This document shows positions 9,717 through 14,007 of a DNA stretch of 14,994 nt, one piece after another. Location: contig JBFMCO010000027.1 of assembly GCA_040754495.1 (NCBI GenBank), positions 1 through 14,994 of the forward strand. Reading direction: 5' to 3'. Source of the DNA: Candidatus Micrarchaeota archaeon. Lineage in GTDB: Archaea; Micrarchaeota; Micrarchaeia; Anstonellales; Bilamarchaeaceae. Under the pieces are notes generated by a model. That model was not told the origin of the DNA. It saw nothing but the letters and a program-made list of their open reading frames with translations, and made no database searches. Within the stretch, counting starts at the first letter, position 1. Each line of letters starts with the position of its first letter. The position numbers and the translations under genes were made by a program.

Positions 9717-10091
9717 ATGGGCAAGCTTGGCGCCGGGGCTTTCGGACTGATAGCAAAGCTATCCCCACACCTAGAGAAGGCCTCGGCCCTTCTTGCTCCC
9801 TTCTTGCGGCGCAAGCCGATAGAATTCGAGCCAGAGGAGAGGCTTGCCATCTATCTGAGGCTCAGGGAGATGCGGAGGAAGATGGGCATCCCTGAGCCAG
9901 AACACCAGGATTCGGAGGAATTCCATGAAAGGCCAGCTTTCAGCCGAGATGCTGATAATGATAGTGGTGATAATGGCGGTCGTGGCGATAGCCGCCACCC
10001 AGCTTATAGGGACCGCGAAGGAGACCGGGGAGAACATCAAGAACCAGACAAAGAGCCTGAACGAACTCACTGCCAAGGCGCTGAAGGGTGA
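9717..10091 (+). CDS. Small hypothetical protein whose frame runs 167 nt into the pilin gene
   Basis: TATA-like ATATATAT at about 9675-9682, GGGGATGAT before the ATG, and an amphipathic/basic first 70 aa. Confidence 0.45.
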   Translation: MGKLGAGAFGLIAKLSPHLEKASALLAPFLRRKPIEFEPEERLAIYLRLREMRRKMGIPEPEHQDSEEFHERPAFSRDADNDSGDNGGRGDSRHPAYRDREGDRGEHQEPDKEPERTHCQGAEG

Positions 10092-10161
10092 GTCCGGGGA
10101 GAGATGCGTTGTTGACGACGATTGCCTGAGCGGGGGCTGTACGCATTACAGGTGCGACTAG
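9925..10161 (+). CDS. Class III signal-peptide (type IV pilin-like) protein with a C-terminal four-Cys motif
   Basis: MKG|QLSAE prepilin peptidase site followed by a hydrophobic helix, a GGAGG ribosome-binding site, and C-terminal CVVDDDCLSGGCTHYRCD. Confidence 0.88.
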   Translation: MKGQLSAEMLIMIVVIMAVVAIAATQLIGTAKETGENIKNQTKSLNELTAKALKGESGERCVVDDDCLSGGCTHYRCD

Positions 10162-10190
10162 AAGAGAACTTGAAACCGTAGCCTCAGACC

Positions 10191-10218
10191 GGAAACTGAA
10201 AACAGGAAACACAAAACC
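10191..10218 (+). repeat. Four tandem degenerate heptamers (GGAAACT GAAAACA GGAAACA CAAAACC), intergenic
   Basis: Read directly. U-rich when read on the minus strand. Confidence 0.65.
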
Positions 10219-10255
10219 CATTAGACGTACCTGGATTACATTGGAGAAACAGATT

Positions 10256-10485
10256 TGCACCCGGGAAACGGGGCACGCCACAATTTCGCGGCACGCCCCT
10301 GCACCCTCAAGGTCCGGGCGAAGCACGACCAACTGCCTTCTACAGCAGCCGGCCAAAGCCACACGGGCAGCCTACCAACGCTCTGGCAAGCGGCGACGGG
10401 GCAAGCCCTCAGGGGGAAAAGCCCTCAGTCAAGCGCCGTTGCAACCGGCGATCGGTTGCCGCCACACCCGAAATGCCCAGGTGCA
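10256..10485 (-). ncRNA. Unassigned structured RNA candidate (about 230 nt)
   Basis: 10-bp terminal helix UGCACCUGGG/CCCGGGUGCA encloses at least four hairpins. At least 12 non-Watson-Crick positions become G-U on the minus strand (A-C on plus). TATA box about 22 nt upstream, and no credible ORF. Confidence 0.65.
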
Positions 10486-10506
10486 TAGGATAATGCGATT
10501 TTTTCA

Positions 10507-10514
10507 TTTATAAA
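10507..10514 (-). promoter_or_regulatory. TATA box positioned to start transcription at the 5' end of the RNA candidate
   Basis: TTTATAAA ends about 22 nt before position 10485. Confidence 0.6.
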
Positions 10515-10529
10515 TGTTACACCGGAAAG

Positions 10530-10563
10530 TTTGACATCCGTCAAACGTTAGACGCATGTCAAA
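10530..10563. promoter_or_regulatory. 34-bp palindrome made of two tandem TTTGAC-N4-GTCAAA-type operators
   Basis: TTTGACATCCGTCAAA (10530-10545) and TTAGACGCATGTCAAA (10548-10563), lying between divergent promoters. Confidence 0.7.
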
Positions 10564-10603
10564 GTAGCCGCCTTTTTTTAACCTTGCACCAGAATCAGCA
10601 TCG

Positions 10604-11593
10604 ATGATAATCGAGATCGCCCTGGTGCTCGTTGGCCTCTACCTCATATTGAAAGGCTCTGACTGGGTGACCGACGCCGCAGTGCCCCTTGCGGCATTCC
10701 TGAATACGACCTACGTTGCCGTAGGCCTCGTGCTCGTTTCCGTCCTATTGAGCCTCCCGGAGCTCCTGGTCTCCCTCAGTTCGCTCATCAAAGGGCATAC
10801 GGACATAGGGGTAGGCGTCATCATCGGCTCGGTAATAGTCAACCTTGGCCTTATAATCGGCATCTCCGCCCTCATCAGGCCCCTCAGGATACCCAGGCAC
10901 GTGATAACCCGCGACGCGGTGTTCATGCTCGTCGCCACCATGGTAGTTACGCTCGTGGTGCTAGAGGACCTTCAGGTAACGGCAAGGGACGGCATCGTGT
11001 TCCTGCTTCTGTTCATCCCGTATCTCGTAAACGTCTGGGAGCAGGAGAAGAACCTGGCTGCGAAGGAGAGGAGGAAGGAATCCGAGATGATTTCGAAGAC
11101 GCTGCAGTTCGTGGGGAAGCTGGGCGGGGCCGAGGTCATCATCCATGACAGCAGGGTGATATTCGTCATTGGGATGCTTATGCTTCTTGCCGGCACCGAG
11201 CTTTTCACCGGCTCGATGATAAGCCTTGCTGCCATCCTCAACATCCCGGAGATTTTCATCGGCCTCACGCTAGGCGCCATCGGCCCGAGCATCCCGAACC
11301 TCGCGGCCGCGGTCCAGGCGGTGAGGAGGGGCTACGACGAGCTCGCGGTATCCGAAACTATAGGCTCCAACATATTCACCCTCCTCATCACGCTGGGCAT
11401 CCTGGCCATCGCCCGGCCCTTCACCATAGACCTTGTAACGGCAGGGGTGACCGGCCCGGCCCTGCTCCTCGTTACCGGCACTTTCTTCGTCTTCGCCTTA
11501 AGGGGCACGATAAGCCGCTCTTCCGGCCTCGTCCTCATCACGCTTTATGGCATTTCCCTTGCCGCCGAGTACCTGTTCAGGATAGGGCTGTAG
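10604..11593 (+). CDS. Cation/Ca2+ antiporter (CaCA, YrbG/NCX_Mj-like) with atypical alpha-repeats
   Basis: Two hydrophobic halves with alpha-1 LSLPE/GSVIVN and alpha-2 GPSIPN/GSNIFT. TATA-like T-tract plus AA at about 10573-10581. Confidence 0.88.
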   Translation: MIIEIALVLVGLYLILKGSDWVTDAAVPLAAFLNTTYVAVGLVLVSVLLSLPELLVSLSSLIKGHTDIGVGVIIGSVIVNLGLIIGISALIRPLRIPRHVITRDAVFMLVATMVVTLVVLEDLQVTARDGIVFLLLFIPYLVNVWEQEKNLAAKERRKESEMISKTLQFVGKLGGAEVIIHDSRVIFVIGMLMLLAGTELFTGSMISLAAILNIPEIFIGLTLGAIGPSIPNLAAAVQAVRRGYDELAVSETIGSNIFTLLITLGILAIARPFTIDLVTAGVTGPALLLVTGTFFVFALRGTISRSSGLVLITLYGISLAAEYLFRIGL

Positions 11594-12479: not shown

Positions 12480-13103
12480 TTACTTCTTCTCCTTCCTTTT
12501 CAGCTTAGATAAAATCGGGACATCAAGCTTGAAGGTCTGGCTAAATGCTTCAAGGCGCCTGACAAAAAGCGCTCTTAAATCATCGGCTAAAGATTGCGAA
12601 TTCAATTCGTCCTCGATGACCTTCCAGTTGAGGTCTGGATACAAAACCTGCATGTCCGGCAGATCCCTTTTCCTGCCTTCACTGGCCAACCCCTTGAAAA
12701 GGAAAATGTCCTCTTTTGAGAGGAGGTAAACGGAAAGGTCGCCATACTTCTTGAACAATTCGGCTCTCGTGATCATCGGGTGGGATAAAACCAGCTTATT
12801 TATCACCTGCATCACGAACAGATCGAGATGGAACCCGTCTTTGTTTTCGAACATTCTTGTTGCATGGAGAAGCTCGTGTTCGCTTTTGACCGTGAAGGGT
12901 TCGACATACTGGGCTCCGAACAAAGCGTCGCAGAAGAGTTCATAATCAGCGTTATCCCTAAAGACGATATCGATATCATTTGTGGTTTCTTTCAGATTGC
13001 GGAAAGACATTGCGCAGCCGCCAATAAGGTAAATGCTGACGGGTCTCTTGACCCTAGCTCCTATCTTTCCAAGTTCCTGATCGATATACGTCGCATCAAA
13101 CAT
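12480..13103 (-). CDS. Nucleotidyltransferase, DUF6036/AbiEii-like; putative type IV toxin
   Basis: YLIGGCAM...TTNDIDIV (GG...DxD Pol-beta-like motif) and KG.A..GRKRDL.D. ATG at 13103 follows a GGAGG-rich ribosome-binding site and overlaps the upstream stop. Confidence 0.8.
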   Translation of the reverse strand: MFDATYIDQELGKIGARVKRPVSIYLIGGCAMSFRNLKETTNDIDIVFRDNADYELFCDALFGAQYVEPFTVKSEHELLHATRMFENKDGFHLDLFVMQVINKLVLSHPMITRAELFKKYGDLSVYLLSKEDIFLFKGLASEGRKRDLPDMQVLYPDLNWKVIEDELNSQSLADDLRALFVRRLEAFSQTFKLDVPILSKLKRKEKK

Positions 13104-14007
13104 GTGCAACCCCCTCCACCTCCTCCCAGGTCGGGAACCCTGATGGGGAAGACTTTCCTTTTGAACGCATGAATTCGATGAGGTCGTTTATGAACTCTTC
13201 ACCCAATCCAAAGCGCTGCTTTTTTTCTAAGAGCCGCTTCAGGTCCAGATCATTCTTTAACATGAGGGCGCCGACATAGGCAATGCTGCGGGCATCGTTC
13301 GAGATGGCTAGCGTATGGAGTATAATGTCGGCTGGTTCTGGACGGATATTTGCATAATAGTATTTTCCGGCAAGGATCAGCGATATCCCGTATCGGGCAA
13401 ATGCGCTGTAGGCTGTTGGCCAGTATCGATTGGAGCTGATTTTTTTATCGGTGACAAAGACAGCCTCTAGACCTTTGGCGCTGTTGAACGAAAATCGGGT
13501 TTCCTTTACTGCTCCGAGTTCAGCTTCAGCTTCGGCGAGATATAGGTGCATAAGCACTCGACGCGAGAAGTCAGCGAGGGGGTAGGCGTCTTCGCGTAGT
13601 TCGTAAATTCCCTTGGAAGCCATGAAAACGATACCGAGCGACCGAAGTTTTTTCAGCATCCTTTTGGCAGTCACGGCTGGCAGGTCAATCTCTGAAAGTC
13701 GAAATGAGGTCTTTGTACTAAGGAAACTCAAAAGGAATGGCACAGCGCCAATCAGAATATCAGCTAGCCGGATTGAAGAAAATCCGGCTTTGGCGCTGGC
13801 AAAACCGAATGACAGTTGTGGATCGATGCGTATCTCTGTATTGCGGCCTATTTTCGCAATGATTACCAAGCGAAGCTTAACGAGTTTTCGCAGGTATTTC
13901 GAAAGATTGGATTTTTTTATGCCTAAGGCTGCTGAGAGCTCCTTGGCGGTTGCCTTTTTTCCAAGGACGAAATCGAGTATCTCGGCTTCTCGTTTGCTTA
14001 GCTTCAT
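13096..14007 (-). CDS. Winged-helix transcriptional regulator, putative AbiEi-like antitoxin
   Basis: N-terminal wHTH (TAKELSAALGIKKSNLSKYLRKL), a second HTH-like segment, and a C-terminal domain. Overlaps the nucleotidyltransferase gene by 8 nt. Confidence 0.78.
   Translation of the reverse strand: MKLSKREAEILDFVLGKKATAKELSAALGIKKSNLSKYLRKLVKLRLVIIAKIGRNTEIRIDPQLSFGFASAKAGFSSIRLADILIGAVPFLLSFLSTKTSFRLSEIDLPAVTAKRMLKKLRSLGIVFMASKGIYELREDAYPLADFSRRVLMHLYLAEAEAELGAVKETRFSFNSAKGLEAVFVTDKKISSNRYWPTAYSAFARYGISLILAGKYYYANIRPEPADIILHTLAISNDARSIAYVGALMLKNDLDLKRLLEKKQRFGLGEEFINDLIEFMRSKGKSSPSGFPTWEEVEGVAHV

Follow-up and report, generated by a model that had tools for sequence, protein, structure and literature searches.

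The window we analysed, a stretch of 14,994 nucleotides, comes from a DPANN archaeon of the family Bilamarchaeaceae, in the genus that holds Ca. Bilamarchaeum. A gap of 442 bp in it separates a gene for a 78-aa pilin-like protein (9925-10161, plus strand) from one for a Na_Ca_ex (CaCA) antiporter (10604-11593, plus strand; Pfam E 2e-45). The pilin-like protein has a class III signal peptide and a Cys-rich C-terminus, and its Pfam matches are weak. Read on the minus strand, the gap holds two palindromic boxes, a TATA box and a GC-rich stretch whose initial G, at 10484, is the first paired G of a structured RNA. Our results show that this is a previously undescribed noncoding RNA gene of about 230 nt, on the minus strand and with its own promoter. 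No transcript data exist for it; expression is inferred from the conservation of the promoter. We consider it very likely that the gene is real, that it is new and that it is controlled by an operator of its own.

Delimited by its terminal helix, the RNA occupies 10256-10484 (229 nt, minus strand). The core shared across the family is 10300-10484, which our covariance model R1 scores at 155.9 bits. The 3' end is not fixed: it is possible that the transcript ends further down, at U-rich tracts around 10250-10197, of which those just past the RNA are short (UUU at 10249-10247 and UUUU at 10216-10213). The minus strand of 10485-10256 (230 nt) folds at -124.3 kcal/mol, compared with -106.3 ± 4.8 kcal/mol for dinucleotide shuffles (z -3.73), and none of 200 shuffles was as good. 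The plus strand of the same stretch has an ordinary fold (z -0.43). Hence, the structure belongs to the minus strand. No open frame is conserved across homologues, and 15 of 34 have none at all; the frames that do occur are mechanical products of the GC-rich stretch. By blastn and the covariance model the source genome carries a single copy of the RNA.

The promoter consists of a TATA box, TTTATAAAT (10506-10514, minus strand), centred at about -26.5 from the RNA start, and the spacing between the box and the 5' end of the RNA is fixed in 26 homologues. Upstream lie two copies of a palindrome with the consensus TWGAC-N4-GTCWA, 18 bp apart. The proximal box, TTTGAC-N4-GTCAAA (10530-10545), is centred at about -53.5 and sits upstream of the BRE and TATA box; the distal one, TTTGAC-N4-GTCTAA in the minus-strand reading (10548-10563), is centred at about -71.5. 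Among 35 loci nearly all have the left edge of the proximal box at about -60, and in most homologous loci the second box is found at -78, whichever gene lies upstream.

Archaeal activators such as Ptr2, LysM and Ss-LrpB typically bind just upstream of the BRE, with further sites upstream (PMC2995911). Our operator resembles their promoters in having a palindromic, dimer-type site a few base pairs upstream of BRE/TATA and a second site further up. It differs in its dimensions: their boxes are 13-15 bp long and lie two to three turns apart, whereas ours are 5+4+5 bp with 18 bp from centre to centre, a spacing unlike the 2-3 helical turns typical of sites for Lrp-type activators (PMC2995911). It also differs in that its target is an RNA gene and that no regulator family can be assigned to it.

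The operator is closely tied to the RNA. Genomes of the genus have 0-4 matches to the strict 16-bp pattern, nearly all of them at the RNA gene, and the five genomes without the RNA have none. When 176 genomes of the order were searched, the twin box turned up in 25, each time exactly once; all 25 are from this family and they represent five genera. A reversed control pattern had no match in the same 176 genomes. A regulon search with the strict palindrome did not find a gene for the regulator.

To describe the RNA family we collected full-length homologues in the same genus by blastn and nhmmer, and built R1 from 26 of them. The family fold consists of a closing stem, a long irregular arm tipped by a near-invariant hairpin domain of 65 nt, and a side hairpin, P6. 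All helices are on the minus strand. The 5' strands of the closing stem, P1 and P2, together span 10466-10484. P2 pairs 10472-10466 with 10319-10313; 97% of its positions are paired and five of its seven pairs have changed on both sides. Its 3' strand is followed by GGGUGCA (10306-10300; together 10300-10319), which in relatives without a 3' extension is the partner of P1 and closes the molecule directly. In the arm, P3a is formed by GGCGGC (10458-10463; V1) and 10371-10366; its 3' strand GCUGCC and the 3' strand of a short ACC/GGU extension make up V2 (10366-10376). In 31 of 34 sequences V1 cofolds with V2; the two vary in length together (r 0.85), and cognate pairs reach -12.7 kcal/mol versus -9.3 for non-cognate ones. 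P6 (10321-10361) contains three helices that are 91-92% paired, and all six pairs of the inner one show compensatory changes.

The most conserved part is the P3-P4 hairpin domain at the tip of the arm (10383-10448; 73.5 bits with R2, a covariance model of the domain alone), where the invariant positions of the RNA are concentrated. It contains P3 (10448-10444 with 10387-10383; 92% paired), P4a (CGCCG with CGGC; 10438-10435 with 10394-10391; 98.6% paired), UG/CG pairs, a 5-nt bulge ACUGA (10429-10425) of which CUG is nearly invariant, P4b (GGGC/GCCC; 10424-10421 with 10402-10399), an asymmetric internal loop and P4c (CCC/GGG; 10416-10414 with 10408-10406). The sequences of P4b and P4c are themselves nearly invariant.

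Two elements of the source RNA are not part of this common fold. The P7 hairpin (10270-10299; 12-13 bp) and the terminal helix P1 (10484-10476 with 10265-10257) are additions of a subclade of about 11 species. P7 covaries there, and so does P1, whose 3' strand CCCGGGUGC (10257-10265) shows compensatory changes at three pairs.

The family structure is not the optimum for the source sequence: forcing it gives -115.4 kcal/mol, compared with -124.4 for the minimum free energy fold, a cost of 9 kcal/mol. Some local pairings that exclude it are also well kept, among them a 5' hairpin (92% paired) and, in the subclade, a 7-bp hairpin. That several mutually exclusive pairings are fairly well kept could reflect a folding pathway or a switch; we see this as no more than a possibility.

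A preliminary description of the locus, made from sequence alone, had proposed a structured minus-strand RNA gene with its own promoter, and this held: the fold energy (z -3.73), the conserved TATA box and the covariation presented below all support it. Also borne out are the canonical TATA distance, kept in the 26 homologues with the centre at about -26.5, and the count of at least 12 G-U positions (about 13 G-U pairs in the family-derived fold). The U-rich tracts it placed after the 3' end exist, short as they are (UUU and UUUU). Its individual hairpins fared unevenly. Covariation bears out the terminal helix and the 13-bp hairpin (10299-10270), though only within the 11-species subclade, and the 10-bp hairpin is the conserved P6. 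The 7-bp hairpin held in part: it is in the minimum free energy fold of the source sequence and is kept in the subclade, but family-wide only 63% of its cells are paired. The 8-bp hairpin failed as a family feature; it belongs to the minimum free energy fold of the source sequence, and its strands are parts of P3 (92%) and of V1:V2. A longer-range GUGGCG/CGCCGC helix is weak (75% paired) and is replaced by P4a (CGCCG/CGGC) and P3a (GGCGGC/GCUGCC).

The structure is also supported by strong covariation. In 36 distinct aligned sequences 94.4% of pair cells hold standard pairs, compared with 82.5% after shuffling, and both partners have changed in 36 of 44 pairs. The score for covariation, 0.473, drops to 0.06-0.12 when partners are slid by 1-3 columns. 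In a scan of all columns against all others, the eight best covarying pairs are all in the consensus structure. These figures are generous: the sequences are from related MAGs, and the alignment was fitted to the model's own structure. Despite that bias the signal is far above its controls.

The RNA is confined to few genera of the Bilamarchaeaceae. R1 finds it in 34 of 40 genomes of the genus (14 of the 16 high-quality ones) and in one genome of a sister genus, g24, and it finds none in the other sampled genera of the order. Relatives have one or two copies each. Five genomes of the genus, 73-94% complete, lack the RNA, as do 18 other genera of the family. R2 recovers the same genomes as R1 and, across 21 other genera of the family, has no further match. 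An exact search for the domain motif in one genome each of 185,579 species returned 16 loci, all in Micrarchaeota-type MAGs. It should be kept in mind that all of the genomes are MAGs, so that tallies for the family are samples of incomplete genomes. The placement of the source organism is supported by the antiporter gene, whose relatives are found in Micrarchaeota MAGs, including LFW-283_2 and one Ca. Bilamarchaeum sp., both in the genus of the window. We take LFW-283_2 to be the genome of Ca. Bilamarchaeum dharawalense. NCBI taxonomy places Ca. Bilamarchaeum in the Micrarchaeia, Anstonellales, Bilamarchaeaceae.

The family also varies in the copy number of the 65-nt domain. The source RNA carries one domain. 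One relative (G018) has two in tandem inside one RNA, and P3 has changed, with compensation, between the copies. Another (G011) has a second RNA gene on its contig C14, again with two tandem domains, in one of which P4b has gone from GGGC/GCCC to GAAC/GUUC. At the other extreme is a minimal RNA of about 105 nt in G045, which is little more than the domain. There the promoter and the RNA (145 bp) are duplicated exactly and flank an inserted RelE/ParE-like toxin-antitoxin cassette. Across the family RNA sizes range from about 105 to more than 250 nt. Because of these three natural variants, we regard the domain as the working unit of the RNA.

None of the established RNA families that we searched for accounts for the locus. 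Rfam 15 has no match anywhere in the window at gathering scores, and a permissive scan of 10100-10650 (E<=10) gave only chance-level scores of 11-20 bits. ARAGORN finds no tRNA or tmRNA in the window. The housekeeping RNAs for which the region could be mistaken are encoded elsewhere in the genome: RNase P RNA has a full-length RF00373 match on contig C61 (336-643; 71.4 bits, E 5e-20) and none at our locus, SRP RNA a full-length RF01857 match on contig C66 (5182-5433; 46.8 bits, E 1e-9) with neither RF01857 nor RF00169 matching here, and 5S rRNA (RF00001) a match on contig C62 (16232-16346; 77.4 bits). The RNA does share with archaeal SRP RNA (RF01857) and other rod-and-junction housekeeping RNAs a similar size, the closing stem of 5' and 3' ends, a three-way junction and a long arm with conserved asymmetric loops near its tip. 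It differs in that it fails the SRP model, occurs in few genera only and is missing from some genomes of its own genus.

Other classes were rejected as well. A MITE, REP or other dispersed repeat is not compatible with a single copy in conserved synteny without target-site duplications, and a coding region does not fit with ORFs that relatives fail to keep open. Box H/ACA or C/D guide sRNAs were dismissed because there is no ACA, no UGAUGA and no match to an Rfam guide family; a second CUGA in the RNA sits in a loop that varies between species. Inspection of the P4 domain by eye for a K-turn, bulge-helix-bulge, H/ACA, C/D or hammerhead motif revealed no tandem GA opposite, ACA, UGAUGA or GAAA. 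A cis-acting leader, riboswitch or other, is not supported by the position of the RNA: the next gene is convergent in 25 of 35 loci, and neighbours differ between genera. Finally, a type I toxin-antitoxin antisense RNA was rejected since the neighbouring protein has a class III (pilin-type) signal peptide and is found neither next to the second RNA copy nor next to the RNAs of sister genera.

The preliminary description had left two interpretations standing, a new ncRNA class and a housekeeping RNA too diverged for standard models. The first is supported by the lack of an Rfam match, the strong covariation, the single syntenic copy, the lack of a conserved open frame and the fact that no paper describing the RNA was found. 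The second is not, since RNase P, SRP and 5S RNAs lie elsewhere in the genome and the RNA is confined to few genera. Of the checks it had proposed, the Rfam scan gave no match, the test for covariation gave a strong signal, the search for copies typical of a MITE found none, and the SRP and RNase P RNAs were identified elsewhere.

In 25 of the 35 loci of the genus the pilin-like gene is syntenic and convergent with the RNA, and no gene follows the RNA on the same strand. On the upstream side there is a CaCA antiporter gene in 14 loci and a DUF211 and VIT1 pair in 17 others. We considered a link to metals or cations on the basis of these neighbours and downgraded it, since in the sister genera g28, g30 and g32 the operator adjoins unrelated genes. 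These include a gene for a membrane protein with a PAL motif and, judged by eye without a Pfam run, a convergent Trm5-like gene and, in g32, one for a CBS-domain-like protein; the pilin-like gene is absent. The cation-transporter neighbourhood within the genus is therefore likely to be mere local synteny. With neighbours unrelated in the sister genera, the promoter and RNA behave as an autonomous module.

Downstream of this operator and of a TATA box, each of these three genera has another GC-rich, well-folding RNA. Taking the first run of five T's as the end, these RNAs are about 115-560 nt long, and the one in g32 contains two tandem domains. None has a match to an Rfam family, and the R2 domain model does not match them either. 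There is some resemblance at the level of motifs: a helix, a 5-nt NUAUW stretch, CCC, a loop, GGG and a helix recur in this order, and g30 has a GGCUC..CCCGUC..ACCGC stretch close to that of the source RNA. Homology of the RNA bodies is possible on these grounds; it is not demonstrated.

What could such an RNA do? In the interpretation we favour, a dedicated DNA-binding regulator, as yet unidentified, would sit on the twin boxes. It would most likely activate transcription, because the boxes lie upstream of the promoter. From a dedicated activator on these boxes, itself inferred, it would follow that one signalling pathway has this RNA as its main output. Action of the RNA in trans is inferred from the fact that no gene follows on the same strand, that the next gene is convergent, and that neighbours change within the genus and between genera. 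The working part would be the 65-nt domain, most likely as a specific protein-binding site, with the rest of the molecule serving as a variable scaffold, and the RNA would act by sequestration or as an RNP scaffold. As a whole, a regulator-controlled, trans-acting RNA with a protein-binding domain is our best reading, and we would put it as no likelier to be right than wrong.

The protein-binding mechanism taken by itself deserves a little less confidence than that; it is inferred, no partner has been identified, and we lean slightly towards its being wrong. A protein partner is favoured for the following reasons. First, conservation of the stems extends to their sequence and not just to their pairing; P4b and P4c are near-invariant, as expected if a partner reads the sequence of the helix. 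Second, the copy number of the domain varies. Third, the arrangement recalls the design of the GacA-Rsm system, with one regulator and one RNA. Against this, a small-molecule pocket or tertiary contacts would explain the near-invariant stems and the conserved bulges equally well. It also speaks against a protein sponge that the domain is present just once or twice, far below the many repeats of classical sponge RNAs.

Two further parts of our interpretation can be challenged. Because the 18-bp spacing is atypical of Lrp-type activators, the boxes could bind a repressor, or could, at this locus, also serve the divergent promoter of the antiporter gene. And a simple scaffold has no need for the alternative hairpins that are kept, namely the 5' hairpin and the 7-bp hairpin of the subclade.

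Among the closest known parallels are the GacA-dependent RsmX/Y/Z and the CsrB-type sRNAs of bacteria. These are stand-alone noncoding genes with a palindromic regulator site upstream, as here. They are also almost the sole target of their regulator, and consist of a structured unit that is repeated a different number of times in different relatives. One criterion for a CsrB/RsmZ-like RNA, a predicted regulator site upstream of the sRNA promoter, is met by the twin palindrome, whose regulator is unidentified. The differences are considerable. The RNA family described here has an archaeal TATA/BRE promoter and one or two complex 65-nt domains in place of many GGA hairpins; no CsrA/RsmA-like partner is known for it, and neither its sequence nor its structure resembles theirs (no Rfam match).

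Of the alternatives to the regulator-controlled RNA, the one that survives best is a trans-encoded sensor RNA, though we consider it unlikely. Here the 65-nt domain would work as an aptamer whose ligand, a small molecule or a metal ion, would shift the balance between the long-range fold and the local hairpins. Several observations fit. The conserved nucleotides cluster in the bulges, internal loops and junctions of one compact domain, and its tandem duplication, seen also in g32, recalls tandem riboswitch aptamers. Exclusive pairings are both maintained, the 5' hairpin versus P1/P2 and the 7-bp hairpin versus P3 and V1:V2, and in this genus the gene upstream of the RNA invariably belongs to a cation transporter (CaCA or DUF211 and VIT1). 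However, the RNA is not a 5' leader: no ORF follows on the same strand and the next gene is convergent. The link to transporters is gone in sister genera with the same operator, no known riboswitch class in Rfam 15 is matched, and the evidence for alternative hairpins rests mostly on wobble changes.

It is similarly unlikely that the RNA regulates by base pairing, be it as an antisense RNA to the convergent pilin-like gene through overlapping 3' ends or as a trans-acting sRNA with unpaired seeds. For this explanation speaks that the RNA and the pilin-like gene are adjacent and convergent, 15-300 nt apart, in 25 of 35 loci, where read-through would produce an antisense overlap, and that a single sRNA gene under one regulator is a common design. 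Yet conservation is found in the 5' and central core, which is highly paired, and is lowest in the 3' extension that faces the pilin-like gene. Long single-stranded stretches are few. The second RNA copy in G011 and the RNAs of the sister genera have no pilin-like neighbour, and gene order shared within a single genus says little about a functional link.

A third possibility, very unlikely in our view, is a constitutive RNP component: a structural or catalytic RNA specific to the lineage, for example of a processing or modification RNP, with no regulator involved. Its presence in 14 of the 16 high-quality genomes of the genus, the complex multi-helix fold with an invariant domain, and the retention of a similar promoter-RNA unit across five genera would all be expected of such an RNA. 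Against it count its absence from five genomes of the genus (73-94% complete) and 18 other genera of the family, the divergence of the RNA body between genera beyond recognition by the covariance model, a size that varies from about 105 to more than 250 nt, and the dedicated operator, which points to conditional expression. A DNA-level element that merely happens to fold, such as an array of protein-binding palindromes or the remnant of a mobile element, could explain the GC-richness, the many inverted repeats and the 145-bp duplication around the toxin-antitoxin cassette in G045, and is all but excluded by G-U pairs and a fold energy that are strand-specific, by compensatory changes that keep pairs up to 170 nt apart (DNA palindromes need none), by the conserved TATA box at the right distance, and by a single syntenic copy without target-site duplications.

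Returning to the regulator-controlled, trans-acting RNA, a bolder reading is possible, though we consider it less likely to be right than wrong. The twin-palindrome promoter and the RNA might together form a signalling module of DPANN archaea with one regulator and one RNA, in which a dedicated transcription factor turns on expression of a modular RNA that uses its 65-nt domain to capture a specific protein or ligand. If this were true, it would be an archaeal counterpart of the RNA-based global control exerted in bacteria by GacA-Rsm or 6S-type systems, with an RNA body that evolves so fast that only the operator stays recognisable across genera.

Very few structured ncRNAs are known in archaea beyond the housekeeping set. 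For DPANN archaea we found none described in the literature we searched, nor anything relevant on ncRNAs of DPANN, Micrarchaeota or Bilamarchaeum. The RNA presented here is unusually well supported for a gene known from sequence alone, with a promoter, a dedicated operator and dozens of compensatory changes. Its functional module has been marked by nature, duplicated in some genomes and almost all that is left of the RNA in another. It also offers a handle on regulation in uncultivated organisms, since the operator may lead to the regulator and the 65-nt domain to its partner. That the operator outlives the sequence of the RNA across genera suggests that fast-evolving RNA genes could be found through their control sites.

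Two occurrences of the strict box lie away from the RNA. The only other match in the source genome is between rpS12 and rpS7, and one relative (G055) has an extra strict box before the gene for an unknown protein of 179 aa.

The twin palindrome and TATA box that precede the window's RNA also precede structured RNAs in three further genera of the family (g28, g30 and g32), and these RNAs are unlike the window's (L185:1576-1729 and L183:1576-1943 on the plus strand of their loci; L186:1343-1457, L187:1340-1457 and L182:896-1457 on the minus strand). In two of them a domain of about 100 nt occurs twice in tandem. None of the other-genera RNAs matched an Rfam family, and none is picked up by the covariance model of the window's P3-P4 hairpin domain. 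It is possible that they are homologues of the window's RNA that have diverged fast.

The gene upstream of the RNA in g28 and g30 encodes a multi-pass membrane protein with a terminal PALPP motif (L185:569-1498, plus strand; 803-1486 and 3-806 on the reverse complements of L186 and L187, respectively). The protein recalls proteases of the presenilin or signal-peptide-peptidase type, a resemblance seen without a Pfam search. Downstream of the RNA, and convergent with it, lies a gene that by its look, again without a Pfam search, encodes a Trm5/Taw22-type tRNA methyltransferase.

In genome G045 a unit made up of half an operator, the promoter and a minimal RNA of about 105 nt is duplicated as an exact direct repeat of 145 bp (L097 2311-2455 and 1571-1715, which are 722-866 and 1462-1606 on the reverse complement). 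The repeats flank an insert of about 600 bp encoding two small proteins that resemble a RelE/ParE-type toxin-antitoxin pair.

Operator-type boxes are also found away from the RNA. The window's own genome has a single further perfect palindrome of this type (contig C25:159-174), between the genes for ribosomal proteins S12 and S7 and immediately upstream of the S7 ribosome-binding site; this may be coincidence. On a contig of genome G055 (C67; L154:768-1368), one box and a TATA box stand ahead of a gene for a 179-aa protein of no Pfam family, after which comes a DUF763 gene. This gene could be a second target of the inferred, unidentified regulator, a possibility that rests on a single genome.

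Elsewhere in the window, a winged-helix protein gene (13096-14007; HTH_5/MarR and HVO_2833 C-terminal domains) is overlapped by a 209-aa ORF without a Pfam match, the pair spanning 12480-14007 on the minus strand.

Convergent with the window's RNA are a small ORF, which starts at about 9717 after an AT-rich TATA-like patch and has no Pfam match, and a 78-aa pilin-like gene (together 9717-10161, plus strand). The two overlap in different frames, and both are conserved within the genus. The pilin-like protein has a signal peptide of class III and, at the C-terminus, a motif of four cysteines.
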